A stretch of 34,880 bases of DNA, from assembly GCA_008632985.1 (NCBI GenBank), contig QPGO01000388.1, positions 1-34,880 on the forward strand, written 5' to 3'. The notes under the pieces were generated by a model. The model made no database searches. It saw nothing but the letters and a program-made list of their open reading frames with translations, and was not told the origin of the DNA. Positions 1,119-27,313 of the stretch are shown in pieces. Every line of letters begins with the position of its first letter. The stretch's first letter is position 1. The position numbers and the translations under genes were made by a program. This stretch comes from Psammoneis japonica. Lineage: Eukaryota.

Positions 1119-1549
1119 GATGATGATGCGTATACATGTATTGTTGTTGGAAATTTGTTGCTAGTAAGTAGTTTGTTGTTGCAACAGACTCTGCACAGAA
1201 GAAGAAGCCAAGTCAGTGAAAATGATGAGCAAGAGGTGGGATGGATTTGAGTGGCTCGAATTGGCTTCCTTGTTTTTTTATGCCTCACGACATATTATAC
1301 GACAACAACCGTTTATCAATGTTCGATTTCTATGGCCCCAAATTGTTTACTCGTATGGCCCACAAATTGTTAAAGACATCTCAAACATTTATCCGAAAAC
1401 ACTTAATTGAGACATCTCTCTTCTCACCTTTTCGAGATTCAAAGTAATCACAATGGTTCATCTGTGTTCATCACAAGGCCAGTTGTCCATTTAGTTCTAA
1501 TTAAACCATTGGCTCACAAACTGTGCAGCTTCAGCATCACACACATCGA

Positions 1550-1650
1550 ATGGGAGTGCACGTCATCTTGACTCCAAAACGCCACCCTGAATTGGCGTGG
1601 GAAGGCACAGAGTGTCTTTGGGCTTGTGCAAAACGCAAGTGCAGAAATCA
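1550..1650 (+). mobile_element. Degenerate IS630/Tc1/mariner-like transposase fragment (C-terminal catalytic Glu region)
   Basis: GVHVILTPKRHPELAWEGTECLWACAKRKCRN fits the PKxHPELxxxIExxWxxxKxxYR motif after reverting ACA>ATA and TGY>TAY. Confidence 0.65.
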
Positions 1651-2199
1651 TGGTGGACCCACTCATCAGAACAGAGGTGGGCATGGACAGGGTCATGCTA
1701 AAAAAAAACAGAAGAAACACAGGCAGGAACAGCAGGTGCCCATCTGGCATGGAGGCCATGGAAACAGAGGTTCTCTTGGGTTGAACCGGGGTCGACTGCC
1801 AGAAGAAGAATCGTCGCGGGCTGCGAATCATGTGGGCCCTGACATCACCAGACAAGACTTTGAACAGCTCAATTTCAAGGCCAAGATTGACCACCAACTC
1901 CATGAGGCAAGAGTGGGAGGACACCCCAAGGATGCCATTGCACCATCAGAGTGTGCAACACAGTGGTCAGACCGACCTTCTTACAGCGAATTTTTTGATC
2001 TTTCATGGTCAAAATTTTTGTGGTTTCAAACCTCATCAGTTGTGTGCACGGTGACAATTTGACAACTGTGAAAGATGAGCTTTGTTGCCATGGAGCCCAC
2101 AACTGTCCTGTGAGGCAACACCATTCACTGTGAAACAGCCAACCATTTTCCCTGTGAGAGTGCCCACCCTCCATTCCTGCAAAACCTGCAATTTAAAAT

Positions 2200-3450
2200 C
2201 ATTTGTGTTGCAAACGCTCTGTTTTGTTGTTTGCATTTAATTTAAATGACGCAGACGGAGACAATGCCATGATGCCCGAGGCTTGCCATTCAGAGACACA
2301 AGCCCAGCGGAGATGCTGCCAACAGCGCTCCAGTCGACACCAAGGCTTGCACTCATGGATGCAGGTCGACAGTTTGCCGGGTTGGCGCTCAACCATGCAG
2401 CCTGTTGGGCATGCAAGCATGCACAGCAACAAGAGAAAACCACAAGGCTGTTTGGTTTGAGAGGTTTTTTCAACAGAGTGCATGAGAGCTGCAGACTGCC
2501 AATCCACAAAGAACGGATGCTTGGGCTGCACTCGCGACCTGCGTGTGGAACAGCGCACCAGCAGAAGTCACAAACATTGTCAGAAGCAGAGCAGCAATGG
2601 GGTGCAATTTCCCCTTTCCTGTTGACACTTGCCAAGAAGCAACAGCTCCATGGGAGAACACCAATCAGGAAGAATGAGTGCTGGAACACATGAGCACAAC
2701 TTTCCCTCTCCCAGCAAAACAGCGACTCGTGTTGAAGTTGCTCATCAAAGACAGCAGAAACCACCACAGAATCTTGCTCCAAGCAGCCAACAAGAACCAT
2801 TCAGGCAACAAGTTCCATCCAGGTGATCTGGCAATCGTGAGGAAGCAAGCACAAAAACAGCACAAATGTCAGAAAAGGGCCCAGGGAAACTTGTGACCAA
2901 GGCATGAGGGCCATGCAGAGCACTGAAGAAAGTGCACAAAGGGGCATGCAATGTCCAAAGAACTCCTTTTGCAGAAGGCAACGGACGCGCTGGCAAACCA
3001 TGCAAAGAAAGCTCAGCATGCATGGAAGCCATGCCTTTGACTTTGGCACTCCATGAGACCACCAATGGCACAGACACTTGCATGGCAATGACAGAACGAC
3101 CCACGGTCAACCATCCCCTGGAAGTGGACTTTGGCAGATGTGCCAAGACAGCACCAGAAAACAACTTTGCCTGTGACAAGATTGAGGATGTGTGCCCCAC
3201 CTTCCAAATGTGCAATGATGACGGCAACAGCAATGACAACAATGACAGCAACAATGACAGCGACCACAGCACAGCTGCAGTCTTTCTGGATCTGGACACA
3301 AAGATTGGAGAAGACGGATGCATTGTTGGTGTGAACATGTCAAAAACCAACAAATCTTTTTCTGCACATGCCTTGTTTGAAGATCGCCATTTGTGGCAAC
3401 TTGCAATGATTTTGGATGCAAAACTCTGACATGCGTGATTTGCCAACGCT
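2200..3450 (+). mobile_element. Degenerate Ty3/Gypsy-like integrase with GPY/F motif
   Basis: 2525-2626 AALATCVWNSAPAEVTNIVRSRAAMGCNFPFPVD; FHPGDLAIVRKQ; 2881-2970 PGKLVTKA*GPCRALKKVHKGACNVQRTPF (GPYRVL-like); multiple frameshifts. Confidence 0.7.
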
Positions 3451-4599
3451 GAAGAAAAGTTTGTGATGTGCGTGCACACAACAACACGCTGGCTCTGCAT
3501 GACAATTCTTCGACACAGCAGATTCGTGACAGCACACTTGTGATCATGAAACTCAAGCTGCACCTGAATCAAAATTCATCTTAGCCAACCAGATGGACAG
3601 CAGGTTTCACCATGCGTTGAGCTGCTGTCATTGGCCAATGGGGCAAAGTCTTTCACTGCCATGGCCGGTTGTCGATTTGCAGATTTGCGACCGCACACGC
3701 AGGATCCAAGTGAATCACAACAGCGCACGCTCTCATTTTTCAAACTTTGGGGAGAGGGTGCACTGTCATGAAGTGTGTGGAAAATTGCGCATGCAAAACA
3801 CACACTGAAAATGCACAGGCAGACCGACAGGCTGCGCAAATCTTAGAAACATGAGGAAAATGAAGGTGGGTCACGTGTGTGCGTGAAGTGCTGCAGACTG
3901 CACACGTGCAAAGACACACACATGTGTCTGCACATGTGCAAAGACACACACACACGTGAGTGAGGAGGACAAAGTTAAAACCAAGTTCAAATTGATTGCA
4001 GTCAAAAGGAACCAAACCACGCATCACAAAAAACAGATTTTGATCCCAATTAAATCAAACATTGCGTGCAGTGCATTGATTGAAGCTTGTGGAAGAAAAG
4101 TCAATGAGACATCAGATGAAATGCAAAAAACAGCTTCATTTTGTCAAGCACTTTTGCTGGCATTTTTTTAAGTTCTGTTTGTTGACAATTTTGACAGTGC
4201 ACTCTAAAAATGTTACAAAGGAAAGTGGAAACCACTGTGTTGCCACCTCTGATGACAGACAGAAAACAATGTGCCATTTTGGCAAACAACACGAGAGAGG
4301 ACAGTGTCAATCCCATTGCACAGAGCAATCTCTGCGACAACAATGAAGCTGTTTCAACATTCTTTGCACCTTGCCCCACATGCACAATGTGCTCGACTGT
4401 GCCAAATTTGAATCTTGAGATCCATGAATTGGCCACAAACGCGGGAATTGAAAATGGCCCATCTTCTTCATAAAAACTCTTTGACACACTTTCAACTGCC
4501 ATGTCATCTCACATTTAAAACAAATGTTGGCACACAATGTGCTTGGCATTGTTGATTGCTGCATTTTGGTTTCATGAATTGACACAAAGATTGGTGATC

Positions 4600-6900
4600 T
4601 CGGTCATTTGTTGTGACAGCATCTCTGATGCTGCGATCACAAAAATGCTCCTTGAAAGCTCTGCAAACAATGCAGTGAGCTTCTCTCACATGGAAAAGTC
4701 ATCCTGCTGTGCGTGCAGCATGTGTTTGCCATCATTGCAGACCCAAATTTTTGAGGTGCTGTTTTTTGCATTTTGCGCCTGAACCTTCCTTTTCTTGACT
4801 GTTGCTGCGATTTCAAGACTTGGGCTGCCACAACAAGGTCGTCCTTGTTGTGTTTCACAATGTTGTTTAAAGGTGGATTGTTGACAGATGCCAGAGTTTG
4901 TAAAACGGCGGTCGCATCATCATCAAAGTCCCAAAATTTGTGCATTTTTGGCATGCACATGTTTGCATGCCGACAAGGTGAAGAAGAAAATGTGTGGTCC
5001 ACTGTGAACAAAGAGCCAAGTCATTGCCCCAAGAGGTTTCAAAGCATGTGGAACAACATTCTAATGTCACTCAGGGGCTGCAAAGGTTTTAGCAATTTGG
5101 CAAGGGGCGTCAAAAAACCACCTCAATTGAGGGCATGGGCATCACATTCATTGCAAGACACATGACCTGGGGTTGCATCATTTGGAATTGCCAGAGCATG
5201 GGCTGACCACACCCATCTGTTCAAGGTTGCCAAGACTCTGCAGGAGCTTCTCTCAACATTGTTTGAGCAGGGTTTTGATGGCATCAGCAGTGAGAACAAA
5301 GACAGAGCAATCACATTTGTGCAACATGATGCTCATGCTGATGCCGTGCCATCACCTGAAAACATCAAGCATCAAGCACGTGCACATCCTGTGCTTGAGG
5401 GTTGAACCTGTTGCTGTTGTTGCAACAACTGTTCTGCACTCTGGTGGTGCATGCCCGCCACTTGCCGCCCTTGTTGTCTGCAACCTCCTTGTCCAGCCAT
5501 GTGCTTGCAAGCTTGCACGACATGCGTGTGACCACCACTGAACCTCAATTGCTGCCATTTGTCTGGAGAAAATGGGCAAATCATTGGATTTGACACCTCA
5601 AGCAATCAATCATGGTGCCTTGGTTGTCCACCAAAGTGCCCCCCTGCCTGCCTTGGCCTCTGTCACTTTGGGGTCCGCTGCCTCTGCCTCCTCTTGGTTC
5701 ACAGCCACTGCCTCTTGCAAAAGCCCCTGCCTGGGTTTCCATCATGGGACATGTCTGAAATCTTGTGCTTTGAATGATGTTGAGCATCCAATTGAGAGCT
5801 GCTCCACACAAATGGGAAAGTTCTGTGGACAAGAAGATGTGCAAGCACCAGCAAAGTGGTGGAGACACTGTTGGCTGATCATGGGGGTGCAAGCATGTGA
5901 CCTGACATTGTCAGTCTTAACTCCTTGAAGGAGAATGTCAACCTTTAGCCTGTCTGTTTTGTTTGCACTCATCCTTGCCCTTGTCAAGGTTGCAAACACA
6001 CTGGCACATTTTGCTGTGCAGCACTCAGACAACAAGCACCTCTCTCTTTCTTGAAATGTGATGTCCTGATGTCATCCAATGCCATCTGTGCATGCTTGTT
6101 GAGCTCTCCCTGTCCATTGCAATGGTTTGCCCATGCCCAGAATGCAGCGCATCTGCCCCATTCTCCACAATGTCATGACTTTCAATCCAAGTCCACCCTT
6201 CCATGTTTGCAAGACATCCTTTTGACAGATCAAGCTGAGCAGGCACATGCACTCCTCTGCATCATTGACAAATGAAGCAGGAATTGCTGCCGGCCTTGCC
6301 ACATGTTGCAATGGTTCCTTTGGCACACCTTCTGTGACAAAAGATTCAAGAGCGCATCTTCCATCATGTTGAAATCCTCTCACTTGAGTGTTGGTGATGA
6401 GCTGACCATCAAGTCGGATTCAACCATGTCCTTTTCAGCATGCTTCCATTGACATGCTTCTGCCAATGCTGCTCAATTGAACTGTGCTGCATCTGACAGG
6501 AGGTTGTGCTTCTGACAATCACAAAGCCACCAAACCAAAGCTTGCAAGTTCTTAATCTGGGCTGCACAAAGTGCCACTCTCCCATCTTGGACAATGCATT
6601 GACCAGCCCCGTTCACCATTTTTTCTGCATCCCGCAAGTCTCTTCCACAACTGCAACATTTTCCAAAGTGCGCTTGTCATGAAACACCAAACAAGCTCTT
6701 GCATTGATGTCAGCAATGCCACATGACTGCAACATGTTGTCAACATCTGCTGCAAGCACTGATGCCGCCATGACCTGAGCTGGTGCTGCTGCCATGCTTT
6801 CTGCAACAATGTCAACAGAACAGTGTCCATTGTGGACAAACAAAGTGACTGTGAGACTCACATGATGGGCAAGAACAGAGACTGAATGCTTCACGAGCAT
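4600..6900 (-). mobile_element. Degenerate Copia-type (CoDi-like) gag region
   Basis: Broken minus-strand frames: MLQSCGIADINARACLV...TLENVAVVEE, DGRCALESF..EG, DRLKVDILLQGVKTD; resemble diatom Copia gag by recollection; boundaries approximate. Confidence 0.4.
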
Positions 6901-9580
6901 TGTGGTGACAGGTTGTCACAATCAGCCGGTGATGAGAGGCCACCCCACCCCACACTGTTGTGTGTTCAAAACCTGTCACACATGTTGAAAACTGGTTCAT
7001 TTGCAAGTGTGATGCCATTTCAGCCCCACAGCAATTCTCATTGTTTGCACTCCAGTCATGTTTGTGATGTTGCACAATGCACACACACAAAACCACTTTT
7101 TCTGCGGCTGACAACTGTGTGGGCATGCACAGCAATGAATGGCTGTGTCATTTTGACTCACACCCATGCAACAATGACAACATTTCACTTGGACTCTCAA
7201 TGATGCAGTGCAGCTCTGACAAAGCAAACAAACAGCAATGTGGTGCTGTGGCTCATGCCACAACACTCTTGCCCTTGTCTTCCTGTCATGTCAAACACAC
7301 ACGTGTGCATTTGCACAACCATTGCTGCAAAGATGACAAGCCTTTCCCACCCAGCCATTCCACACACACTGACCAAGAAAGACCACTTCACTCAGATTTA
7401 CTCAACATTCACAAGCGAGTGACTTTAGAACTGAAAATTTCAAGCGCACAAAATGTCGTCAGAAGCACGCACACTCTGGCCAGCTCTGGCAGTCTAAAGA
7501 CACCTGGAGAGGCTCTCAAAACCTTTGCTTTTCGAAAGCAATGGTGTCCAATGATGAAAGACAACAGCTGTTGTGGCAAAGAAGTTTGAAAACAATGACT
7601 CACTGGGGGAGAGGCACAGGTCCCTGGTGCAAGAAGCCCTCCAATGTCAGACAGAACTTGGCCCTGAAGACAATTTCAGGATAAAAGGATTGTGGATGCG
7701 ACAGACCAGAAGAAAGTCATGTGTGCATTGTGCATGGCCAACCAAAAAGCATTGTCGCCACCGTGTCAGACCGCAGTTGAAGATCGGAGTGCCGCATGTG
7801 CAATGACGGGAGAGACGCAACGATTGCAGCTGTGGTGCAGTTCATTGGCGGCACGGTCTTTGAGCGTCCACTCTTGACGATTGCCTAGACAGGATGCATC
7901 CAGTTTCCAAGAGTATCTCTTGACGATTGCCTGCCATATACAGGATGTACACTACAGAAGCTAACATGCTGTTATAACCAGAATAGATACTCTGCACTTG
8001 GCCACGCCAAAACTTCTCCTCTAATCCTATCAGCACACAAATCGTCTCCTCCCTGACAGCACTGACACGGAGCGTTGGACTTACAAAACCTCCTGTTACC
8101 ACTCTCTGCCCAAACACATCCACTTGAAGTAGCCCGCACTTCCATGCCAAGGGATCTATCCCATCCAAATTGCGAGTGTCACCGCATCAATAAGTATAGG
8201 AGAGCAACCACCAGCGCCATTACGTCAAAGGGTGTGACGTTAACGGATTTCAACGAAGAGTTATGAACTCGCTGAAAAATACAGTAACGGCAAGATAGCC
8301 AAGGTGTGAGTTGGCATACAATATCACATCCAGCTTTGCTCTGAATGTTGTCATCGAAACTCAAAGGAATAATGGCCGACCTTGACGATGAACAAGAGTG
8401 CGCACGGAAACAATGCATGAGCCGTGTTCTTCAATTTATGTGGCGAAACACAGATGCCCGTATATCACACAACAGAACATACCTTACACCGCCGCATATG
8501 AAAAGCAATAAAATGGGCTTTGAGGCTTTGACGACTCTGTCCGTTCTGTAGCGGATGGTTCAGACCCCGAATGCAATGTGTAGAAGATTTTTAGTGTCCG
8601 AAAGGGCAAAGCCAATGCCACGTAGTACCCCGTTCAGGTAGTTGTAGTCTATCTGGACCTTTGGTAGAGGCGGAGGCATGTTGGTTATCCCGTCTCAGTA
8701 AATGTAAGGGGTCAAACTACGCCACGTTCAGCTCGAAAGAAGTCCGTCCGACAGCATCAAACGTGACATTTCCGGTTTCAGTATCTTTTTGTCGAATGAA
8801 GTTGAGCAAGTGGTATTATGCGTGGACAAATCACGAGGCCCTGTCATCAGATCAACATCAATATAATCCGTAACACCCACAAAGCTTGTATTGACAGCGT
8901 GCTCGTAACGGGAGACGCCGTCTGCTGCAGACTTGATTATTCTTTCGACTGGAAGCTGATCTCCACCTGATCGGGATGGTTCTGGAGCTCTTGCATGCTC
9001 GAAACCAATGTATCAAGCGCACGAGTTCCTGGTATCGGCATGGAACTTCCACGAGTCACTTGCAGGATTGATGTAGGCTATCTCAGAAAATACAGACACA
9101 AAGAGAGATTCGGATCGGAGCCGCAAAGTGTTGCGCATTCGCTCATGGTGTACAGTATTTGTGATCGGTGGCGAATAACATCAGCGATCGTCACAGCGCA
9201 GCTAATCAACAGCCCCAACTAATATATAATAAAATGTCATGTGCGTGTCAACGGAAACCACGAATAAGATTTATTGCCTCACAGAGACTTTTGGCGAATA
9301 GTCGTCAGTCGTCAGAAGCAAAGAGGAAATGAAAAAGGCGTGGCCATGGCGCTGCCGTAAGATTGTAGCGGTATTCCGAGTTTGGATTCGAGATGATTAC
9401 TTGGATCAAGCCCAGTACCGTTTAAATTGTGTCAAAACCAACTCTGCACTTCGCGGACACGATTGCCTACACGCGAAAATCCGAAATGTGCAAGCACGCA
9501 CTTTCCCACGCTCTTATCTTTCTTCGGCTCACAACCGCAGTTCTGGCAAGAAAGTAAAGTATCGCATCGACAATATCACC

Positions 9581-11310
9581 ATGTTGTACACTTTCCTCTT
9601 CTTGAACGCCTTGTTTCTCTTTGGCACTTATGACCGAATCAAGGATCCTGATCAGTTCAGCCCATTTGTCGCGGTTTGCTGGTTCCTCGTGTTTCTCTTT
9701 TTGAGGACAGTCAACGTCTGGTTATTTGCGGCTGTATGTCTTATCTATCTCTATCTTGTCTTTGAGGAGCGGGCTCAGGCGCATTATGACGACGAGGGTT
9801 TGACTACAGATTCGACCTTTGAAGACAATGAGCCATTTCTGCAGTAAGTTCTCTATTGCGCTCGTTGTTTGTACTGCCTGTTACGACAACATTTGTTTCT
9901 CACGTCGCATTCCTTCTGTTCCTTTTCCTGCTTTCATCCCTATTCACGGCATTGATCGCGACAGTATTGCTTTTCTTGAGCCGGTGTCAGAAAAAGAAAA
10001 GATCAACCTTTTGCCTCCCAAGCCGAGCCCTCTGAAGCACCAGCTCAGCCCAGCTCACGGTGTTGGTTGCAACAGCAGCACAATTCGCGAGCCAGTTCCA
10101 ATGTACAAACCCCCACCGGCGGTCGAAATGGAATCAGAAAAAGACATCTTCAAAGCTTTGCCTCCCAAGCCGAGCGCTCCAAAGTGCCAGTTCAGCTCTA
10201 CTCACGACATTGGTTGCAACAGTAGCGACTCTCGCGAGCCGGTTCCAATCTACAAGGACTCTCCACTGTCGGTCAAATGGAGGACAAAAAAACTCAACAA
10301 CATCAAAGTTCCGCCGATCGAAGTTCCGCCAAATCGAAGTTCCGCCGCCCACGTCAATCCCTAGGAAGTATCGGTTCACCCCTGTTAACGGTGCTGGTTG
10401 CGATGGTGGCGCCTTTCACGAGCCGGTTCCAACGAACAACTCTCCACCGTCGGTCAAATCGGAAGCAGAAAAAGACAACGTGCCCCAGCCAAAGTTACAG
10501 TCGGCAGTATCTGAAGGAGACGCGGAGCCTTTTGAGGTGCCCCACCCAAAGTTGCATTCGGCGGCATTTGAAGGAGACACGGAGCCGTGTAATCCAAAGG
10601 AAGAAGAAGACACTGTCGAGGAAGCTTGTTTCGAGGCGCCCCAGCCAAAGTTGCACTCAGTAGCATCTGAAGGAGACACGGAGCTTTTGAATCCAAAATG
10701 TAAAGAAGACCCTGTCATGGGGCCTTGTTCCGAGGTGCTCCAGCCAAAGTTATATTCGGTAGGGGACAAGGTGACGTTCAAGTATCGGTTCTTCGACAAA
10801 ACCATTCCAGCTGAAATCGACGAAATTATCTATGACGGCAACACAGTTCGGCACTACTCTGTCTGCTACCCCCCTTGCTCAGTGAATTATGCCAATCCAG
10901 TGCAAGAACCTGGAGGAGAGCTTGTTTTCTTGGAGATTCCTCCAAAGTTTTCGGTGGGTGACAAAGTGATTCACAAGGCTCGAAGTTGGCAAGAGGCCAC
11001 TCCTGCCGTCGTCGTTAGAATTATCACCCACGAGGACTTCTATCCGTCCTATGCTGTCCGTATGCCTGATGGGGAAGAGAGAGAGGCCGTCGATTCACAT
11101 CTCACTCCTGCGCCGAAAACTCCTATTTCAACGTACACGAAGGGCCAGGACGTGCTTTACTGCCGCAACAACACTCGTGTAATGGCCAAAGTTGTAAATG
11201 TCTACTTTGATGATGATCTCGTGGCGTACTACGACATTCAATGTGTGGATGGGAGCGAGAGACAGACGATTGATTCCTACTTGGAGGAGGATCCCGATCC
11301 GGATTTGTAA
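9581..11310 (+). CDS. Putative membrane protein: N-terminal hydrophobic helices, Pro-rich internal repeats, three C-terminal SH3/Tudor-like modules; one apparent frameshift
   Basis: Exon 9581-9843, intron GTAAGT 9844-9964 (CAG), continues in the 9819 frame, switches to the 10060 frame at ~10332; modules begin YSVGDKV, FSVGDKV, YTKGQDV; last two end Y(A/D)(V/I)xxxDGxER. Confidence 0.6.
10302..10347 (+). repeat. Three copies of the 15-bp unit ATC(A/G)AAGTTCCGCC(G/A) with one extra A
   Basis: Units at 10302, 10317, 10333. Confidence 0.9.
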
Positions 11311-13332: not shown

Positions 13333-13762
13333 ACAAAAAGTCTCAACATATACACACACCTTGAAAGAATCTGGGCATCCATTCGAGTATCTATCCCACC
13401 CATCATAGCTGGTACCACGAATGGCCACCATAGCATAGCAGAGATCGTCTTTGGGAAAGGTAATTATTAGTTTGTACATGACGGCCGATTCAGCTCCCAA
13501 CAAAACTTCATCACGAAACTCGTCCACTTCGACCACCTCGGGGTCATCTCCAAACCAAAAGAATTGAGGAAAAACTGCGTATTTCGGGATCGACTTAGGC
13601 AGGCGCACTCAAAAAGGCTTTTTCGGCAAGCACCCTTTCGGGACTCCGCTGCGTTTCCAATCCATTTCCCATCCGACACGTTGGGAGTAGGGCGGCCGAT
13701 TTGCTTGATTGTACACATACACACACTGAACCGGTGTTGATGAAGAGACGGACACTGTCTCT

Positions 13763-15609: not shown

Positions 15610-17838
15610 ATGTTCGTTTTCAAAGGAGGTCTTCTTCTCTTGGCTCTTGCGTTATGCAAGGCAGCTGGTACGTCTTGATGTTTGTTTATTGTTGTCGTTT
15701 GTCGTCTCGTACCGTATTTAGATGCCAATAAATATGGATTAATGTACGGTCCACTTCTTCTCTCTGAAAATTCAGATATCTCGAAAGACACTGGTCTCAT
15801 TCATGATACCGAGGAGGAGGAGGAGGTAAGTTTCAGTAGAGATAGCATTGTTGATCATGCCGACTACGTTTCGCTCACTCACTTCGCCGAATCCGACATC
15901 CCGCCAATAAATACAGCTTGACCTCATCCCAGAAAGCACTAGCTTGATCGACAGGTTTCTCAGTGGTGTACGTAATTAAAAACGAGATTGCATTCGTTGT
16001 CTTGTGTACAGCAATCAAGAGCTTACGATGTTTCCATTTTCGACTTTCATTTTACAGTACACCGGTGCATGTTGCTTTGCCGACAACTGTCTGTCTCTCG
16101 ACCAGTACACGTGCGGAGGAAGAGGTGGAGTCTTTGGCGGTTTCGGTTCTAAGTGTAACAGGAAGACATGCCCGAATGCCTTTGGCGCTTGTTGCAAGGA
16201 TGGGTCGTGTAAAATCCGCAGCAAAAAAGGATGTGCCAAAAAGGGTGGTTCGTTTCAGGGCACCGGCACCGTCTGCCGCAATGCCTATTGCCCAGTCCAT
16301 ACGCCCGCTCCAACGCCTAAACCTTATCATCCGCCTAATCCTCGAGGTGGGTGCTGCTTTCCGTATCTCAAGGATTGCAAGAACATTAAAAAGAAGAACT
16401 GTGCCAGAAGGGGAGGACACTTCCTAGGTGAAAAGGTTTTCTGTGACAGGTACAACTGCCCGGATGCCTTTGGAGCTTGCTGTCTCCCAAATGGATACTG
16501 TGAAGTTCTTACGAAGAAAAGGTGTGAGAGGAAGTATGGCAAGTTCAAGGGACCGGGTATCGATTGCTCGCATGGCATTGTAAGTCAATACTCCCTGGTT
16601 CTCATTTTCAATATCATTGGATAGTGACATTCAATGTGATTTAACATCACTCTCTTTGCTATTGCTCTCTTCAAGTGTGGCCCTTCCCCCACCCCGTCAC
16701 CAACACCCAAGGTAGAAGATCCAAAGGGCGCGTGCTGCATCGACGGGCATTATTCCTGCCTACATTTAACGGCAAAAGAGTGTGCTCTTGCTTATGGTAA
16801 ATTCCAAGGTGAAGGTACCACTTGCTCGCATGGCATTGTAAGTCAAAACTCCCTGGTCCTCATTTTCAATCTCATTGGATAGTGACATTCAATGTGATTT
16901 AACATCTTTCTCTTTGCTATTGCTCTCTTCAAGTGTGGCTCTCCCCCCACCCCGTCACCAACACCTGCGGTAGAAGATCCAAAGGGCGCGTGCTGCATTG
17001 ATGGACATTATTCCTGTCTACATCTAACGGCAAAAGAGTGTGCTCTTGCTTATGGTAAATTCCAAGGTGAAGGTACCACTTGCGAGCATCCCGGTATTGT
17101 AAGTCAAAACTTCCTGGTCTCCCTGGTCCTCATTTTCAATCTCATTGGATAGTGGCATTCAATGTGATTTCACATCTTTCTCTTTGCTATTGCTCTCTTC
17201 AAGTGTGGCTCTCCCCCCACCCCGTCACCAACACCCAAGGTAGAAGATCCAAAGGGCGCATGCTGCATCGACGGGCGTTATTCCTGCCTACATTTGACGG
17301 CAAAAGAGTGTGCTCTTGCTTATGGTCAATTCCAAGGTAAAGGTACCACTTGCGAGCATCCCGGTATTTGCGAAAAGAAATCGGCCTGCTGCTTCCCTCA
17401 GGGTGTTTGCTTTGACGTGGAAGAAAATGTGTGTTATGGTATCAGTGGCAAATTTTTCAAGGGAACAAAGTGCAACGGCGTCAAGGACGCAAGGTGTTCT
17501 GTTACTCCACCTACTCCCGGTGCGTGCTGCAAGAAAGGAGGAGGAGGAGGAAGCCCACGAGCAGTAGCTCAAAGAGCAAGGGAAAAGGCAGTAGTGGCAG
17601 CACTGGTAGCAGTGGATGGGGTGGTAGCAGTGGCAGCAGCAGCAGCAGCAAGGGTAGCAGCAAGAGTAGCAGTGGCAGCAGCAGCGGTGGCAAGAGTTGT
17701 GAAATTGTCGACACCAAAGACGATTGCGACGGACACTTTTTGGGTCCTGGTACCACGTGTGATAAGTGCCCTTCTTCCCCTTCTCCTCCAAGCAGCAGCA
17801 GCTCAAGCAGCAAGAGTAAGGGCAAGCATAGAACGTAG
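15610..17838 (+). CDS. Secreted Cys-rich repeat protein (9 GACC repeats) with signal peptide, acidic propeptide ending at RFL, and Ser/Gly/Lys-rich tail; apparent frameshift at ~17550
   Basis: Exons 15610-15667, 15776-15825, 15917-15967, 16058-16579, 16676-16837, 16934-17098, 17204-17838; all introns GT..AG and phase-compatible; spliced N-terminus MFVFKGGLLLLALALCKAADISKDTGLIHDTEEEEELDLIPESTSLIDRFLSGYTGACC. Confidence 0.85.
16565..17368 (+). repeat. Triplicated intron+exon unit (~258-270 bp)
   Basis: Introns 16580-16675, 16838-16933, 17099-17203 are near-identical, each followed by CG.PTPSPTP.VEDPKGACCIDG.YSC. Confidence 0.95.
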
Positions 17839-18167
17839 CTTTCAGTGGCAGCTTATATTGAGTAGTTCGTTAGTGGTAAAGGAAAAGACCGGAGCGTCTG
17901 TTGACGAAATGGCAGACTTGTGGCAATGGTCCTTTTTTTTGTAATAATAGTTTCATACTTGTGTGCTTCCAAAAAATATATCAATCGACCTAGCAACAAT
18001 ACTCTCTAGAGCTCCCCGATCACTCGAACAAAATCCTACTACTCTTTGCAATTTGAAATTCCATAGGGTGACACTCCTTGCATGCTCGAAATGGGTGTCT
18101 TGATTCGAATGCTAGAGCGGGCATGGAAGTGAAACTACTTGGACAAACTCAAGTCGGACCGAGCCTG

Positions 18168-18370
18168 AAATTTTAAGTCACTCTTTATAGGATTGTCAAG
18201 CACCGAACACGCAAACTACTCACTAGAGACTACTCTCTATAGCTAGAGCGTCCACCATGATTCAGTACTCACCCTACCGTAATTTTAGTCGCTCTTTGAA
18301 TAGCATTGTCAGGCATAAACCATGCAAACTACTCACACTAGACTACTCTTTAGCTAGCGCGTCCACTATA
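18168..18370. repeat. Two diverged ~90-bp direct repeats (period ~112 bp) in the convergent intergenic region
   Basis: AATTTTA(A)GTC.CTCTTT...ATTGTCA.GCA...GCAAACTACTCAC..AGACTACTCT..TAGCTAG.GCGTCCAC.AT occurs twice; also present in copy 2. Confidence 0.8.
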
Positions 18371-18500
18371 ATAAAGAATAAAGCACTCTCTAAACCGTAG
18401 CGTCGTCTCACTGTCTCACCATTACTACGGTACTGACTACCACAACCACACATTCTACTACCACAACCACATCATCATCATCTCTCTCGCTCACACACTA

Positions 18501-19126
18501 TTATTTCTTCTTGGCACCACTCACGTTATGCATAAAGACAACTATATCACCCTCTTGCATAACATAGGTCTTTCCCTCTTGTCTGTATTTACCCGCTTCC
18601 TTGACTTTCGCCATGCTCGCTTGTCCACCATGCAATGCTTTAAAATCATCAAAATTGGCCACTTCGGCCTTGATGAAACCACGTTCAAAGTCGGAATGAA
18701 TGACACCGGCGGCTTGGGGTGCCAAGGTGCCTTGCATAATGGTCCAGGCCCGTACTTCCTTGGGTCCTGCCGTATAAAAGGATTGCAAACACAAGGCGGC
18801 ACGACCCGAACGGATAATGCGGGGCAAGACGGATTTGCACACAAATTGTGGACCCGTCAAACCCAATGCCTTGGCCTCGTCGGTGCATTGATTGAGATAG
18901 GCTTGTTGGAAATATAATAATGAGAATCGCAAGTGTTGTGTGAGATTATTACAGTGCAATGCAATGCAAAACACACTCATCTCATAATAACAATGCTATT
19001 TACCTTTCTGTGCCTCCTTGTCGTCTCCAATATCGGCCAATTCTTGTTCAAATTCACACGACATGGGTATGATTTGTCCACCACCGTGTTCATTCACCCA
19101 CTGTTGAATCTTGGGTAACCACTTGC
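18501..19126 (-). pseudogene. OLA1: 5'-truncated copy of OLA1/YchF
   Basis: Last exon 18501-18901, intron 18902-19003, partial exon 19004-19126; P-loop domain missing, replaced by foreign sequence from 19127. Confidence 0.92.
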
Positions 19127-19249
19127 GAACTTGGAGAAAAAAGTGACCATCGTGCACGCTGTCAATCAACGGGGGCAAAGTGCGTCTCTCGAGCAAATTG
19201 TGAGAGCAAGAGGGATTGGAGGATGAGGAGACTGAATGAGCAGTCTGGG

Positions 19250-19456
19250 TAGGGCTTTGGATATAGGGCCTAGCGGGGCGCGGGGGGGCCCCGCGATTTT
19301 CCTGTGATCGTGCCACGTAGACTCTACGTAGCACGCAGTATGTACACCCATGGCCCAAGCAGTACATTGTTCACGCGCAGTATCGCGTAGTGCGGGGCCC
19401 CGCCGCGGGGGTGCCGTCTTTTTTCCTAAAATCGCCCCGCTATATCCAAAGGCCTA
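19250..19456. mobile_element. 207-bp hAT-type MITE
   Basis: TIRs TAGGGCTTTGGATATAG / CTATATCCAAAGGCCTA (1 mismatch); perfect 8-bp TSD AGTCTGGG at 19242-19249 and 19457-19464; GC-rich subterminal motifs. Confidence 0.9.
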
Positions 19457-20769
19457 AGTCTGGGGGGCGTGAGATCGTCGAAGGCGGTCTGATCGCCAGT
19501 GCGTTTGGGGGGTTTTCCAGTGCAATTTGCACGCACAAGAAAACACACCTGCCATAGGATCTGTCAAGTTGCGCGCAGACTTTGGCGGCCACAGAAGGAG
19601 GAAAGGTGGTGCTGGGTGGGCGGGCACACGATTGATGGAAAAAGGTGATGGGATGATGTGGGCAAGGAGGGGGGCAGCAGAGCAAGGTGACAGGCTTGTT
19701 GCTGTGGTGTGACAAGTGTCGAGTGTTGGCACTCTGGCTGTCTGTTGACAAAATCAGAAAGAACAAGGGCCCAACAGGCAAGTGCCAGCTGCAGCGCCAT
19801 CGTGCCTCTCCTGGAGATCCAGGGCATTTGGCACAACCTGAGTTGTGGCACGCAGCTTGAAGTCAAGGGGGGGGGGGGGGGAAGAAAGCAGGTGGGGCAA
19901 GAAATGGCGCACTGGTGCACACAAAAGACACAGCAGCAAGGCACCTGCTGCAGCAAACACAGGTTTTGCTGTTGGAAAAGCAAAAGATTTGCATTCTTGG
20001 ACAGCTCCATGGTTGGCATGAACCGCAAGTTGCATGGAAGGAAGTTCAAGTGCCGCGCAAGTTGCACTTTGTCAAGAGGCAAAGTCAAGCCACAAAGACT
20101 CCTCTTGTGCTGAAAGCAATGTGAAATGAAAAGCAAAGAGGGGGGCCTCACTGGGGCGGAAGAAAAGTCCCGGCTCGGTTCACTCGCCGGGATGAGCTGG
20201 TTGTTTGTTTTGCGGTGGGCTCAATTTTGACATCAAAGCAGTTGAGAGCAAACTCCAGATGCAGCTTTGACGTGAAATGACCAGTTTCTCAAGGATTTTC
20301 CTTCACCCAGTTTGTGCTGTGGTGTGAGTGCTGTGTGGACAGCAGCTGCAGCTCGGGGGCCAGTGCCAGGCGGCAACCCAGATGCATCAGCTTGCTCTTT
20401 GAAAGAGCTGCAGTCACAACCCAACAAAGCCAGGTGGCAGTTGCCAGAAGCAGATCTCTTGCTTGAAGTGAAGCTGCTGCTGAGTTGTTTTTGCACATGA
20501 AGAAAAACAACAAGAAAGCTCATTTCCAGCTGTGCCAGCGGGGCTGCTGGGTTTGCAAGTGAGAGCAGGGGTCGTGCTGCAAGCTGGGGTGAGCAAAGTC
20601 ACTGGAGACAACTCAAACTGGGGTCATGTGCATGATCTTGAAAAAAGGGAACAGGAGCACTGGATCAAAAGAAGAGAAAAAAGCACTGCACAGGCAAGGG
20701 CACCCTGCCGAGGCAGCAAAAAGCACGCCAATTGGCTTTGCTCCCTAGATGCACCAGCTGCTCCCCTGC

Positions 20770-20905
20770 AAAAGAGTTTTGTTGTTGCTGTGTTTCTGTC
20801 TTGTGCTTGTTGTCAAAGTTTTGCATGCACTGGACAAGCTGATGATTTGAGCAAGGTGCTGAAGCAACACACAAACATCGAGTGTGTGCATGGAAGTGGG
20901 CCGCA
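20770..20905 (+). mobile_element. Possible degenerate GIY-YIG endonuclease fragment
   Basis: SFACTGQADDLSKVLKQH...GSG resembles YxGxTxDLxxRLxQH with Y>C. Confidence 0.35.
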
Positions 20906-23900
20906 TTTTGTGAAAGAGTTTCTGGCAATGCAGAGCAGCAGAGAACCTGCTGTGCAATTTAAAACCACACACAGATGAATCATGGTGAGGCACTGAAAAG
21001 CGTGACAGAGCAAACTGGTGAGGGAACAAACTGCAAAGCATGGTCATGGTGTGCAAGCACAAAACTCTTTTTCTGTGCTCTGCATTTTTGATGCACTGGC
21101 CAAAGGACTGCTCCAATCTTGACATCTCTCAGGCTTTGCTCCTGACAAAGTGATGAGGACTCCAATGTTTGTGCCATTGGCTGCGGGCATCCCATGGCCT
21201 GTCATTGTTTTGTCTTTCGTTGGTGCAAACACAGTGGCACAACAGATGCACAGGCAGATGGGTGTTGTGTCATTTTTGGGGGTTCAAGTGATTGTTCATT
21301 TGGGCTTGTGTGATGTTTTGTCAGCGGGCATTGCATTTGGGTGTTTTGGCCAATCAGAAAACTCTTCCTGAGATTTGCAACATTTTCGTCAAAGAAAAAG
21401 AACAAATGAAATGCTCTTTCTTTTGTCACAATGACAAGTTGCAATTGGCCATGTCGAAACAAAGGCAATTTGTTGATGTCACATGTGTGGTCACATGTTC
21501 ACTCTATTGCTGGGTCACAATCATCACAACACTGTCGTGTGGCCCTCCAAAAACACAATTGCAGCAGCGAACTTAGCGTCGCACAATCACACTTCTATGT
21601 TCACGAACAATTTTTAGAACTCCTCACATGCGCTCTCATCAAAGAATGCTCTTTCAGGCAGTGACGTCATTTGTGCTGATTTTTTTACAACTTCAATGCC
21701 TTCCATCTTGAAAACGAGTCAGAATCCCCCCACTTTTCTCATTTCCAAAACATCTCTTTCACTCAGCTGCACGACATGAGCAAATCATAAAAAAATCTGC
21801 AGAACCATTTTGGAGATGTTTCTGCTTTTGTGCAATCGTGTGGCATGTCACGAGCTCTTTTTCTGAATTTTGGTCTCAACTTCATGATCGGTGTTCCATG
21901 CGTGGCAATGCAGACAGAACCCTGAAACCATCATTTCCTCATCCACCTTCATGTGTTGCACTTGGTCCACAAAAGTCAGACCCATCCATCCGGTTTGAAA
22001 AATCACACTCCGTTTGCTCCTCCTTTTGCTGACCCAGGTCCCATTTTTTCAAAATTCTGAAAAAACAACTTAAACTTCAAGGCCCTGATTGGCACACAAT
22101 GCTTGGTTGATGTGCACCTGACTGCAAGACGCCTCTCCGGGTCCCTCTCCGTGAGGCAAAACACTTGGCCGGCTGGACCATGAGAGTGCAGCCAGTCCAT
22201 CCAGAGGTCCCAAATGCCCAATCGCACTGATTGACATGCTGCCCCAGTGCAAATTCTGTGCAACTTTCTTCGACAGTCTCACTTTCGAAGACGTCCCCCA
22301 AGTCACGGGAAATTTGCGGACATGAGCAGTCTCCTTCCACACAACTTGCACCAGCTTCCATGGATTCCTCTCTCAACTGACATTTGCAGTGACTGTTTCG
22401 CTCCAGCAATTTGAGTGTCTTTTGCGCTGGAAGCTGCTTTCTGCCCCCCAGCTCCATGATGCCACATGTAAAAATCAACCCCCCATTTTTGACCAAATGC
22501 CCACCTTGGTCGACTGACAGTGTGCAGATGCGAAGTTCAGCACTCTTTTGGGGGCCTGGAGTGGGGGTGGATGTCAGGGCCCAGTTGCTTGCCAATCACT
22601 GAATGTTGGCTCTCGCACTTGCCCGTGTGACAAAGGTGCTCCACGAAAAGTTAGTTCTGTTTTGAAATGCCAGATGCCATGAACAACACACGCCTGTCAC
22701 ATTCTTGCAAGACATCAGTTTAAAGAGCATGAGACTGACAATGCTCGCATCTTGTGCATTTTGTGGCTCTAGAGCGGGGGTCAAAGTCTGGCCAATTCTT
22801 CCAAAAATTCGAGTCGAGTGGTTCACACGGGATTCAAGACACGTGGCTCACTGCACAATTGAGCCTTTTTTCTCCTTTTTTCCGAGATTGGATGATGACA
22901 TCAACACAAGACCTGTTTCATGGCCACACTCCATTCTCCAATCCATGGCTGGCCTCGTGACAACTACATTTGACCTCTTTCATGCTCTGGACAGGCCAAG
23001 CAATCCACAAAAACTCAATGCAAGCAACACACTTCTGTTCTCACATTTGATGTTTGTGTCTTTGCGGTCAATCTAGAGCAGATGTGAGCCAGGGAGGAGC
23101 TCTGTTCACTGACATTTATCATCCTGTGGAGTGGCATCATCAGAACAATTTTGTCAACGTTGTTTGACTGCTTTTTTGTTGAACCGTGCGCCAGCATCAT
23201 TCTTCATTTTCGCCCCAATCCGCCCGACTCTCTCCTGTTCAAGAATGCTTGGCTGAATGCATTGCAGTTGCTTTGTTAAAGTCTTGCAAATGTTCGTCTG
23301 TTCAATGCCATTGATCAAATGGGATGGATGACATGACGACGACGTTGGATTCGTTCATGTGCTCATGCTGGGAAAGACAACAAGAATTGGCTGCGGTGGC
23401 AAGAAAGTTGAGTGAGACAACAAGTGGTGAGCCTTGGACACATTGGCAAAACAATTTTGATTTTAAATTTACTTGCCTTTTTACAAACTCGGACTTTAAC
23501 ACATCGGGTTCCAAAAATCTGGCAAATGGTGAGTTGATGCGTCGTCTGCATGCAACATGGCGTCACGACAAAGCAAAGCAGCATGTTTCAATGTTTCTCG
23601 CCAAAATGAACGTCTCCAAATGGAAAATTACAACCGTGTGTCAATGAGGGTCCAATGGAGCTTCTGTTGCAATGGTCCAAAAAACGACAAATGTTTAGAC
23701 ACCCCATCTGCCGCGTCAATGTCATCGTTGGCTCCGGCAAGTTTTTGACAATTTCTCCGTGTTGTCACCACGGGGATGGTCTGTGCACTCATCCGGAGCG
23801 CACCGGCCATGCCAGTTTGAAGTTGCTCAGAGCCTGGGTCTCACAGCTGCGTGAAGGGAACGGCAGCTCGAATGCACACTGGAAGCAACATGAATGCCAT

Positions 23901-24479
23901 GGATTCCTGCTGAAATGGAGAGTTTTTCATGGCCCCAATGGCAGCTTGAATGCATGTGCTGGAAGCCACGTGAATGTGCCACGGATTCCTGCTGAAACGG
24001 CTGGTGGCGGCACTGTTCCCAGTGGCATGTGAGCTCAGAAAGTGGCTCTTTTCTTTTCCCTCCAATCTCCGATGTCTTGCAAACAGCTTTGAAGCTCCTC
24101 TTGGCAGTGCTGTCCCACCATTTGCTTTCGGACGATGCTTGCTTTTGAATTGGTGCATTCCTTCCACAGCAAGCTGGCACCTTCGTTTCTTGCTAGATCG
24201 AAAGCAACGCAAGCCAATGTGCTTGGACTGCAGAAGACAGAGCCTGTTGGTTGTGTGGGGCACAGATTCCCAAAGTTGAGTTCCAACTGCTCCTCCTGAC
24301 CACCTCATTCATTCGTTGTTGTGTTCAGTTGTCCCGTTGAATTGAAAGCATCACAGAAGTCGAGTTTCCATCATTTGATGGGACGCAACTCCATTTCCAG
24401 CAGAAAGACAAGACAACAACATCGTTGTGCACACTGCACAAAGTGGCACAAAATCAAAAATGGAAGACGCTGAGCTTCC

Positions 24480-25010
24480 TTGTCCATGGCGAAGATTCGG
24501 CTGCACTCTTCCTGTGTCAAGCCTCGATCTTTGATGATCAAATTGATCATTTCAAACATTTCTTGGATGTTTTCTTCATTGGCAGACCTTGTGACACACA
24601 ATCTTTCCCGACTCGTTTGCATCAATCATGTCAAATGCTTCACGAATCTCCTCCTTGGTCCTTGGAAAGGTGCACTTGATTTCGGTGCAAACCGCTTTCT
24701 TGAAGTCATGTCTGAGCACAAGTTCTCGAAGTCATCATGAAGCGTCGGGTCAGCATGAAAGAGCTGGTGCATTGCCTTGGCGGGCAGCATGGAAACCTTG
24801 CATGAGTCACTGATGCACTGGGCTGTGACACTGTGGGGCTTGCCAAAGTGGACAGTGCACTCACCCGTCATTTCACTCGGTCGCAACAACCGCACCTTGT
24901 GGCCATGAACGGAAATGTCAATGTCACCCTCCATCTTCATGCAGAGCTTGTTTCCCTTTTGACCTTCAGAAAAGATCTTGTCACCTGCAAGTTCTGAACA
25001 CTGCATTTTT
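24480..25010 (-). pseudogene. Hypermutated host-gene fragment: cyclic-nucleotide-binding domain followed by an EF-hand-like segment
   Basis: LAGDKIFSEGQKGNKLCMKMEGDIDISVHGHKVRLLRPSEMTGE...KPHSVTAQC is a cNMP-binding pattern; EENIQEMFEMIN follows. Confidence 0.65.
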
Positions 25011-25809
25011 TGTTGAGACTCAAAATTGCACTGGCTCGTTCTCGTCTCTCAGCCATGCCCAGAAAGGTCTCCTTGTCTGTTGCGACATGCTTTTCATGCA
25101 AGTTGCAAGAAACTTCCAACAAGTGCACCGGTGTCTTGCGGGTGTCAATGCCGTGCTGCTGGAGTGCTCGTCCTTGGCATTCATCAAGACGTCTTGTCTG
25201 AAAATCTCACCCGACCCTCACATTTTCTTGAAGCCATCCGTGAAGAAGCCAGCTTAAATTGACACGAGTCAGCTCTCATGTCATCATTCAAAAGGGGCGC
25301 AACTCACTCATTCACTTGTTCTGCTGTTCACATCATTGTGTCGTTCCACCAGCTGTGTTTTCCATTGAAAGGAACAAGTCAGTCGGAACAATGCATTCAG
25401 ACATTTGTGGAAGTCATGACTGCTGCATCTCAGTTGTTCACCTTGGGCGGCGTCTCGTTCTGTCACACAACAAAGGCACAAAGCGTGGCCACAAGGCTCA
25501 ATCCAACTCTCATTGGCCTGCACTGGCCAGAACCTTCTGTTTCACAGTGTCTGGCAAAGCGACAGCTTCCAACATGCCACGTGCCGTTTGCTCACCGTCA
25601 TCCTCTGTCCTCGCACCTCGCACCCCTCCCAAGGTCCCAAGGGGTGGCTGGGAGTGCGTCGCACCGCGAGCGAGCTCTGCTCCACATGGCTCTGCTCTCT
25701 GCTCTCTCTGCTCCACTGGGGCCCTACACCGCGACAGTGACTGGTGACCCAAAATGCCTCCGGGCCCCGAAACTCCTCTGGGTCCCAAAATTTCTCCACA
25801 ACACAAAAT

Positions 25810-27313
25810 GGACAGCTTGCCGAGTTTCATTTTTGGCATGCCAGTAGAAATTCAATGTGTTTCTACATGCGACAGTTTCTCACACATTCGCACGAACATC
25901 GCGAACTCTGCGAGCTCCAACACGAGAATGACGCGAAGCACCAAGAGTTTGTGAGAGAGCAAATGGTGTTGCTGGCACACTGTGAGTGCCAAGCAAAAAT
26001 GCCAAAACATTGTTGTCACATGACACATGGATGGTTGGTCTATCGACAGACAAAACAAATCGCCTTCAAAGCTGGTCAGAAGCTTCAACAGACTGCACAG
26101 CTGTTTGCATGTTGTTGGGTTGCAACAGAGGCCTGCGTTGCCCACTTTGAATCATTCTCAAATGATGACCACAGCCAACTCCTCCACCAATGTTACTGTC
26201 ATCTCCTGCATCAAGTTGCTGTTCAATTCAATCAATGCTCTCTGCAGCCGGAGAGCAAATGATGAGACTTCTGGCTCGTCCAACAAGATGACAACGATGC
26301 CGACTCGACAACTCGCCAGCATTTTTGTTTCAGTCACAGATTTGTCATGTGACTGGTTGATGTCCACAACCATGAATCTTTTCGAAAGCATTGCTTGTTT
26401 GCATCCACAAAGCAGAGCCCTCTAAACTGCTGCTGCTGCATGAAGAGAAGGACGACAAAGCAGAGCCAGTCACAGCCCCTGGATGAGCAACCATTTCAGA
26501 ACAAGTTTTCCTTGGGATCAGGCCAAATTCACTGTCACACCACCAATTTGAGCTCTTCTGAGTCATCCACACCGGTTGCATTTGCCAGAGTTCTGCCAAA
26601 GTAACTTCCAATGGGGCCAACGCGTCATTTGCGGTTCTTGCATCCACAGACACACATTCAGGGTGAGTCCTCCTTGGCCTCCAGCCAACTCCGCTGTCAT
26701 GCCAACACATTGAGAACTGCTGAGTCTTCCACACTGCATGCTGACGTCACAACACCGCTAAAGATGCTTCAAATGGGGTCAACACATCGTCGCAATGTCA
26801 ACACCGACCATTGTGCGTCATGTTGGTGGGTCCAGCGGCGTCTTTTTGTCGCGAAACAAAACCCCTGTAACGCGGTCACCATTGCTGAGTCTTCCATGCT
26901 GAATGCCAACGTCACAATGCCACCAAGGACACTTCAAATAGGATCAACACATCGTCGCAATGTCAACACCGACCATTGTGCGTCATGTCGATGGGTCCAA
27001 CGGCGTCCTTTCATGGCGAAACAAAGCCCCTGTGACTCGGTCACGACCGGCCATTTTCTTGAACCAGCTGTCAGTTGCATTCTAAGACTCCATGGTGAGG
27101 GAGACATGATGTGGCAAGGTAGCGTCAGAGTGCAAACAACGCCGCAGTGTCATCATCATTGTGAGTGCGGCATGCACGGGTAGGTCGCCGCACAAATTTG
27201 AAAGAGCTGATGGGTCCAACTGCCATTTCAGTACAAACGTACGTAGAAACTTGTATGTACAGATCTACACAACTTTGTACTGGCATGCCAAAAATGAACT
27301 CGGCAAGCTGTCC
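25810..27313. mobile_element. 1.5-kb non-autonomous TIR element with AT target duplication (ISL2EU/PHIS-like)
   Basis: TIR GGACAGCTTGCCGAGTT(T)CATTTTTGGCATGCCAGTA at 25810-25846 and inverted at 27278-27313; AT at 25808-25809 and 27314-27315. Confidence 0.8.
26718..27044. repeat. Tandem duplication, period 165 bp, two copies
   Basis: TGCTGAGTCTTCCA starts at 26718 and 26883; shared core TCAACACATCGTCGCAATGTCAACACCGACCATTGTGCGTCATGT. Confidence 0.95.

Follow-up and report, generated by a model that had tools for sequence, protein, structure and literature searches.

In Neurospora and other fungal species, repeat-induced point mutation (RIP) changes C to T at CpA and so creates TpA; it is triggered by duplications of about 0.4-1 kb or more, and depends on the methyltransferase RID and on the premeiotic stage of the sexual cycle. 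To our knowledge, mutational genome defence acting on adenine was known in no cellular organism before a preprint of 2026. In the mutation-accumulation lines of the alga Bigelowiella natans described there, two integrated viral regions have a mutation rate about 1000-fold above that of the remaining genome; the main text reports that 230 of 231 mutations were A>G or T>C, that all of these GC-biased mutations fell at TpA, and that the DNA targeted is that of integrated giant viruses and virophages (Mettrop et al., bioRxiv 10.64898/2026.01.13.699255). According to the same source, the B. natans genome carries 124 TpA-poor, CpA+TpG-rich clusters, and transposon and viral domains are over-represented among its TpA-poor coding sequences; its authors propose an ADAT2-like DNA adenine deaminase, and cite as natural activity of ADAT2 on DNA only that of amphioxus, plus activity on cytosine in Trypanosoma (bioRxiv 10.64898/2026.01.13.699255). 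Here we analyse a stretch of 34,880 nucleotides from the diatom Psammoneis japonica (assembly GCA_008632985.1, contig QPGO01000388.1, positions 1 to 34,880; hereafter the window), which holds two multi-kilobase blocks that have lost nearly all of their TpA (TA) steps. We consider it probable that both blocks arose by near-saturating transitions at TpA, accompanied by CpG decay, through targeted deamination of adenine in place.

We calculated observed/expected (obs/exp) ratios of dinucleotides in 1-kb sliding windows across the whole window, and then set the limits of the blocks from a list of every TA. The features delimited in this way are as follows.

1503-7885: block 1, a TA-erased and CpG-depleted domain of 6383 bp
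19167-19455: spacer of normal composition, 289 bp (TA obs/exp 1.2, CG 0.95), between a duplication and block 2
19456-27231: block 2, a TA-erased and CpG-depleted domain of 7776 bp

Block 1 has 25 TA (obs/exp 0.06), 117 CG (0.32), 700 TG (1.99) and 786 CA (1.76), and block 2 has 39 TA (0.08), 240 CG (0.51), 777 TG (1.61) and 823 CA (1.68); the corresponding ratios in the three flanks are 0.55-0.67 for TA, 0.87-1.00 for CG, 1.15-1.25 for TG and 1.21-1.30 for CA. The ranges of TA obs/exp in 1-kb windows do not overlap between the blocks (50 windows, 0.00-0.16) and the flanks (73 windows, 0.37-0.90), and sliding windows within the blocks give 0.12-0.69 for CpG and 1.6-2.1 for TpG/CpA. The longest TA-free runs are 1339, 1191 and 1061 bp; at the TA frequency of the flanks (0.0466 per base), the chance of a 1339-bp run is about 2e-28. 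Both blocks have edges that are sharp on a scale of 100-200 bases, as the normal spacer next to block 2 shows for its left edge. Thus the counts bear out a preliminary description of this DNA in its two blocks with near-total loss of TA, saturation in TG/CA and sharp edges, but not in its coordinates (~1400-7910 and 19127-27230): the limits of block 1 are corrected to 1503-7885, and the start given for block 2 lies about 330 bp too far left, as 19167-19455 keeps a TA obs/exp of 1.2. A direct repeat of 16 bases, CTCTTGACGATTGCCT, has one copy on either side of position 7886, where block 1 gives way to its right flank (7870-7932); it could be junction micro-homology or chance.

With the flank dinucleotide ratios as reference, about 276 TA are expected in block 1 (25 seen) and about 320 in block 2 (39 seen). 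In block 1 the 251 missing TA and 212 missing CG, 463 together, compare with a gain of 510 in TG+CA; in block 2 the figures are 281 and 186, or 467, against a gain of 417. The surplus of TG+CA therefore matches the deficit of TA+CG to within 12%. Second-order footprints expected of a change from TA to TG/CA are also present, with GpC up by 102 and 85 and ApT down by 31 and 68 in blocks 1 and 2, respectively. Both products rise on an equal footing: the TG:CA ratio of the blocks (1477:1609) matches that of the flanks (1508:1627), and both steps are raised in every 500-bp bin. This agrees with the conversion of TA to TG/CA on both strands that had been proposed for this DNA. Four of the 27 bins depart from a 1:1 ratio (chi-square >3.84), all towards CA, with TG:CA of 40:62 at 1503-2002, 36:70 at 2503-3002, 51:80 at 7003-7502 and 38:68 at 26456-26955; these bins hint that the mutator favoured one strand locally, in blocks that are symmetric elsewhere.

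Loss of CpG (obs/exp 0.32-0.51) with gain of TG/CA is the pattern of methyl-CpG decay in silenced transposons, and it fits the CpG methylation of diatom transposons described in passages of PMC9998398 and PMC5124317, the latter also describing diatom methylation as predominantly at CpG. Such decay explains only part of the present pattern, however, as TA is removed as well: TA makes up 251 of the 463 and 281 of the 467 missing pyrimidine-purine (YR) steps, so that CpG deamination alone is insufficient, as the preliminary description had argued. Over both blocks, 64 of about 596 expected TA survive (0.11; about 89% lost), as against 357 of about 754 CpG (0.47). Since TA survival is below CpG survival in the same DNA, the process acting on TpA has outrun methyl-CpG decay.

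The footprint is the opposite of that of RIP, again as previously described, in that TpA is destroyed and CpA/TpG created (TpA 0.06-0.08, CpA/TpG 1.6-2.0). What the two share is that irreversible transitions, laid down block by block, destroy repeats and spare adjacent genes, in association with cytosine methylation. The blocks resemble the B. natans regions, as these are presented in the main text of the preprint, in the change of TpA to TpG/CpA on both strands, in clustering and in the footprint of low TpA with high CpA+TpG. Full-text searches of the literature, and term searches within a study of the Cyclotella methylome (PMC5124317) and one of diatom transposons (bioRxiv 10.1101/2025.10.24.684338), gave no description of TpA hypermutation in diatoms. 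The earlier statement that no description was known has to be qualified, since the same signature is described in the main text on B. natans. The diatom case joins a kind of process described once, in 2026, in an unrelated alga. It differs from that case in several respects: the host is a diatom and not a rhizarian alga; the blocks are near saturation (TA obs/exp 0.06-0.08), where the main text gives a Rho of 0.45 for the B. natans viral region; CpG decay runs alongside, where the word 'CpG' has 0 occurrences in that main text; and the process is known here from its sequence footprint alone, where the evidence in B. natans is experimental.

A lesion or misincorporation at TpA that is left unrepaired or is misrepaired in silent chromatin, for instance through patch repair or a photoproduct, would need no dedicated deaminase. 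The edges could be sharp because such repair operates in transcribed DNA and fails in heterochromatin, and the blocks are CpG-depleted, as expected of methylated silent DNA. Against this, TA has been lost to a greater extent than the methylated CpG alongside it, and the C>T changes at dipyrimidines expected of ultraviolet damage are weak (TC departs from expectation by -81 and 0, and CC by -34 and -60, in blocks 1 and 2) beside the near-complete loss of TA. Nor is the WA>WG signature of polymerase eta seen, as AA is not depleted (588 vs 575 expected in block 1, 646 vs 554 in block 2) and AG is unchanged (376 vs 383 and 441 vs 436). In B. natans, moreover, the main text reports that the elevated rate appears in some lines only, and its authors regard the process as regulated (bioRxiv 10.64898/2026.01.13.699255). 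We therefore regard an origin in faulty repair as quite unlikely. Patch mutagenesis by polymerase eta, an option raised in the preliminary description, is not supported, because A>G is not seen after A.

The TA steps that survive are strongly structured by their neighbours (R, purine; Y, pyrimidine). None is found in the context RTAY (ATAC/GTAT, GTAC, ATAT), where about 217 are expected; 27 of about 352 remain in one-sided contexts, and 37 of about 90 in YTAR (TTAA, CTAA/TTAG, CTAG). An additive per-strand model in which the hazard of loss depends on the 3' neighbour of the A (A 0.19, G 0.73, C 2.02, T 2.74) fits all ten classes and is better than a single rate (likelihood-ratio chi-square 100, 3 df). 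Survivors alone cannot separate an effect of the 3' neighbour from one of position -2 on the other strand, but products can: the 3' rule predicts that YTAY becomes YTGY and not YCAY, and we found a gain of 355 in YTGY+RCAR as against 153 in YCAY+RTGR. In each of the three context classes, deficit and gain balance to within about 15%. From these patterns we infer that the target is the A of 5'-TAY-3' on either strand, a 3' pyrimidine being about 3-14 times better than a purine. The B. natans main text has no trinucleotide or flanking-base analysis with which this preference could be set side by side.

The content of block 2 was assessed from one public run, stored as contigs (X1), which has 56% of sampled words of 18500-28400. 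X1 contigs were aligned to 7401-27400, and the share of block 1 in this is its last 485 bases. For comparison, depth is 47-71 in single-copy contigs, and there is one contig per place in the genes between the blocks. In block 2, summed depth ranges from 700 to 2819 at 19407-24075 and from 662 to 1158 at 25410-27400, and the listed places in the repeats have 2-17 distinct contigs each; at 24076-25409 it is only 66-147, so that this stretch is low-copy. Block 2 is a mosaic, mostly of multi-copy repeat pieces around a low-copy gene fragment, and its parts are as follows.

19459-24075: multi-copy repeat pieces, with unit ends near 19469, 22200, 22953-22986 and 23500 (from X1 loose ends and depth)
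24473-25238, minus strand: dead host-type gene fragment (the relic), the C-terminal ~270 residues of a channel-like protein of 760-825 amino acids (aa)
25410-27231: multi-copy right part of block 2, which includes a 165-bp tandem pair at 26718-27044

The relic bears on the direction of change. It has a cNMP_binding domain (Pfam) at 24629-25048 on the minus strand (E 2e-8) and an EF-hand-like stretch. Its 140-aa open reading frame (ORF) has 164 relatives at E <=0.001 in a full HMMER search, the best being P0121 (2e-32, 41% identity) and P0121-P0123 lying at 2e-32 to 3e-28; a word-filtered search limited to longer proteins, with a filter that may miss mutated sequence, gave no relatives. With six of the relatives as queries, tblastn placed the relic at 25238-24473 on the minus strand, in pieces in three frames with two in-frame TGA. 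The stretch is TA-free and includes the 1061-bp TA-free run. At five columns where the family consensus is Tyr, the relic reads CAT, TGC, CAC, CAC and GCC (His, Cys, His, His, Ala), and four of these five codons are one transition away from TAY. It has 0 Tyr in 256 residues, where three relatives have 8, 5 and 7 in the ~270 residues that correspond to it. At 175 consensus positions it carries 53 substitutions, including 6 single TA>TG/CA and 11 single CG>TG/CA changes; in YchF, an intact gene of the window used as control, 39 substitutions at 285 positions comprise 0 of TA type and 3 of CG type, and Tyr is kept at three of four consensus-Tyr columns. Small as these numbers are, they support the view that TA was originally present in the relic and was then converted, so that the TA-poor state would be derived by A:T>G:C change; the A-to-G direction given in the preliminary description is in line with this. 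A weak tblastn match to the N-terminal part of the same family (31-40% identity over 35-80 residues, E to 5e-5) lies at 12416-12691 on the minus strand, among normal genes, and suggests an intact paralogue there.

It is very hard to credit, by contrast, that foreign or mobile DNA was always without TA and that no hypermutation took place. Other copies of the block 2 repeats, which match at >=90%, do lend something to an account of this kind: of the 11 best-supported places at which all other contigs differ from block 2, six are CG and two TA where the window has TG/CA (CA, in the two cases of TA), and so few TA differences imply that those copies are TA-poor too. The relic, however, has His or Cys where its family uses Tyr and is broken by frameshifts and stops, the surplus of TG+CA balances the deficit of TA+CG class by class, and nothing in the flanks comes near a TA obs/exp of 0.06 combined with TA-free runs of kilobase length.

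Both blocks had been said to contain transposon relics. We scanned 150 of the 164 block ORFs of >=60 aa against Pfam (the 14 omitted lie at or beyond the block margins) and found no transposon-type family, the sole family being cNMP_binding, a host-type domain. The 24 whole-frame translations (stops as X; six frames each of 1401-4900, 4701-8000, 19101-23400 and 23301-27300) likewise gave no reverse transcriptase, integrase, transposase or viral family, and only cNMP_binding. Self-comparison of the blocks, both plain and in purine/pyrimidine code, which is blind to transitions, revealed no pair of long terminal repeats or terminal inverted repeats in either block; only a 165-bp tandem and a 44-bp inverted match turned up, weak matches in the two-letter comparison being disregarded because its E-values are unreliable. 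In block 1 there is accordingly no protein domain in six whole frames and no terminal repeat, and its longest ORF (2748-3575, minus strand) has no relatives in a word-filtered protein search, the filter of which may miss mutated sequence. In metagenome contigs, there were 0 matches to two degenerate patterns of 36 letters taken from the high-copy DNA of block 2. As no transposon domain or terminal repeats were found, the transposon relics are not confirmed as such, although block 2 is mostly multi-copy. The targets here are thus unclassified multi-copy DNA and a host-type gene fragment, unlike the viral DNA of B. natans.

Loose ends of three to five X1 contigs fall at each of 19469, 22200, 22953, 22986 and 23500 and mark the ends of repeat units. 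At 19469 the loose-end consensus still has a motif that begins at about 19459, which would place a repeat terminus some 5 bases from the last TA of the flank (19455). Tandem Repeats Finder describes 26718-27044 as 2.0 copies of period 165 with 85% matches. Of the 24 mismatched columns between the two copies, 10 form five TG/CA double differences and 3 are TA vs TG/CA; a TG/CA pair alone cannot separate an ancestral TA from an ancestral CG, but differences at YR steps fit a change after the duplication. The 44-bp match, inverted and at 95% identity, links a stretch just right of block 2 (27274-27406) to 25807-25850 inside it, and is followed by 4.8 copies of an 18-bp unit at 27321-27406.

These observations bear on whether the editing could have preceded integration, acting on RNA (in the manner of ADAR) or on replication intermediates of mobile elements that were then inserted. 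ADAR favours a 5' U (according to the main text of bioRxiv 10.64898/2026.01.13.699255), and the left edge of block 2 coincides with a repeat terminus. Editing of a single strand gives one product, however, and both TG and CA are up in every bin; that both strands were hit argues against one-strand editing of RNA or of cDNA. The host-type gene fragment is equally affected, most differences between the 165-bp tandem copies lie at YR steps, suggesting that they changed after being duplicated, and no reverse transcriptase was found in the blocks in ORFs or whole frames. ADAR also prefers a 3' G, opposite to the sparing of TAG and TAA seen here. Editing before integration is, in our assessment, very unlikely.

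We then compared the blocks with duplicated DNA elsewhere in the window.

17659-19166: duplication copy A, the 3' part of YchF, outside the blocks and not TA-erased (TA obs/exp 0.77)
29365-30937: duplication copy B, part of the intact YchF gene (30268-31894, minus strand), with TA obs/exp 0.74
30716-31894, minus strand: intact YchF gene

YchF has 7991 relatives at E <=1e-20, the best 120 of which are 66-85% identical; every named one among these 120 is from a diatom (Thalassiosira, Mayamaea, Epithemia, Fistulifera, Odontella, Attheya and MMETSP diatom transcriptomes). Copy A is presumably a truncated, dead copy. The 1.5-kb duplicate is 93.3% identical, and its 101 substitutions (55 transversions, 12 of TA type and 8 of CG type) have an ordinary spectrum; it ends at 19166, 290 bp from block 2, and has no mutated continuation into the block. 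The tandem array at 16564-17353 (period 258, three copies) is ordinary as well, with 44 substitutions of which 14 are transversions and 4 of TA type, and the four substitutions in a 159-bp x2.5 tandem array are all transversions. This indicates that duplication as such is not the trigger here, unlike in RIP. Within block 2, the low-copy relic has been mutated as thoroughly as the repeats that surround it, and the left edge of the block coincides with a repeat terminus.

A trigger of the RIP type, in which duplicates are sensed by pairing and both are mutated by the same A>G chemistry at TpA, is accordingly unlikely, though it has points in its favour: most of block 2 is multi-copy, and enzymes related to fungal RID (DNMT4) are widespread in diatoms, with a function that passages of PMC9998398 give as not established. 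The ordinary duplicate, whose partner lies 10 kb away, counts against it, with the limit that its age relative to the process is not fixed; so do the two tandem arrays and the relic, which at low copy is as TA-free as the neighbouring repeats.

The reads also address whether the blocks could be an artefact of sequencing, base-calling or assembly, such as a modified base at TpA. X1 contigs, assembled from k-mers, reproduce the TA-free sequence: one of 504 bp (7446-7949) has 0 differences and spans block 1's right edge, one of 886 bp lies over 23770-24655 with 6 differences, and one of 471 bp over 24912-25381 with 7. The check on reads thus comes out in favour of the sequence, with the reservation that X1 may be the assembly's own sample and that the platform of the assembly is not on record. 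An artefact would also need to produce frameshifts, CpG decay and a rule of sequence context, and the same signature arose as new mutations in B. natans, according to the main text of bioRxiv 10.64898/2026.01.13.699255. We give this explanation almost no weight. Over the genic stretch 8735-14070, X1 contigs reach a depth of 200-870 with about 2% differences, as against 47-71 in neighbouring single-copy contigs; a second haplotype, extra copies or mixed strains could account for this. Another run from the same sample (X2, listed as 'DNA?') covers gene-like parts only (8068-15404, 18073-19406 and 22742-24075), and short segments are missing from its contigs; three of these segments have CT..AC ends (e.g. 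12220>12296, 13090>13359), in the manner of spliced minus-strand transcripts. Its depth over 22742-24075, inside block 2, is 71-106, which raises the possibility that some member of this family of repeats is transcribed.

Taken together, the central claim of the preliminary description, a targeted mutator that turns TpA into TpG/CpA, opposite to RIP and beyond CpG decay, holds up. The two blocks have undergone near-saturating transitions at TpA, in which TA becomes TG on one strand and reads as TA>CA when the change falls on the other, atop ordinary decay of CpG to TpG/CpA. Mutation would take place on chromosomal DNA, in place and on both strands, and the most economical chemistry would be one in which adenine is deaminated to hypoxanthine, a base read as G. 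As its agent, a putative TadA/ADAT2-like enzyme directed to silenced, CpG-methylated, repeat-derived chromatin is likely, and targeting would follow chromatin state or the identity of the element, not the pairing of duplicated sequence. The outcome would be irreversible inactivation, in which codons for Tyr turn into codons for His or Cys and further stops come from CpG decay.

Several points weigh against targeted deamination in place and call for caution. No transposon or viral domain was found in the 14.2 kb of the blocks, and defence against mobile DNA is thus not shown here; for block 1, the copy-number data cover the last 485 bases only. The composition of the flanks, which are mostly genic, stands proxy for that of the ancestral blocks, there being no unmutated copy of either. 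The segment 15900-17650 is CpG-poor (0.62) yet normal in TA (0.61), so that CpG methylation alone is not the target mark, and loss of CpG and loss of TpA are separable in this genome. X1 is probably the sample of origin, and its support is therefore weak as independent evidence. The Tyr evidence consists of five columns, and the count of TA-type codon changes of six. Lastly, CpG survival in the blocks (relative to the flanks) is 0.68 in RCGY, 0.54 in one-sided contexts and 0.39 in YCGR; CpG after a pyrimidine decays faster, which could reflect the preference of a methyltransferase or of a deaminase. This apparent preference for YCG feeds the favoured class of products and partly confounds the asymmetry described above, so that the TA-derived ratio lies between about 1.3:1 and 3.7:1, right in direction and uncertain in size.

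TadA and ADAT2 deaminate A34 of tRNA, which is preceded by U33, and DNA editors have been derived from them; the loop read by native TadA is U-A-C. An A that follows U or T agrees with the T-A-Y context proposed here, and a TadA/ADAT-like DNA adenine deaminase would fit as the agent by this analogy, which we take as a lead only and not as membership. Inactivation of invading sequences by a deaminase is a trait that would be shared with ADAR and APOBEC; these, however, work on RNA or on single-stranded replication intermediates, and their signature lies on one strand, whereas both strands are equal here, and APOBEC changes C to T at TC/CC, not A to G at TpA. More tentatively, we raise the possibility, short of a favoured view, that diatoms and chlorarachniophytes (stramenopile and rhizarian, respectively) share an old defence by a 5'-TAY-3' DNA adenine deaminase that is recruited to silenced chromatin, independently of duplication, that changes TpA in place on both strands, and that permanently kills all that lies in the domain, host gene fragments too. 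If true, this shared defence would mirror fungal RIP, and the adenine base editors of the laboratory would have in it a counterpart in nature.

To what is described in B. natans, the diatom case adds near-saturation, a testable TAY motif, evidence for targeting by domain or element over duplication, and CpG decay that occurs together with the loss of TpA. Blocks of this kind hide transposons and dead genes from homology-based annotation and distort composition-based analyses of diatom genomes. Some diatoms are genetically tractable, so that the enzyme could be found, and both chromatin biology and the engineering of base editors would have an interest in a DNA adenine deaminase that occurs in nature and has a defined motif. 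If the inference holds, major marine primary producers would have a mutational genome defence that acts on adenine and not on cytosine.

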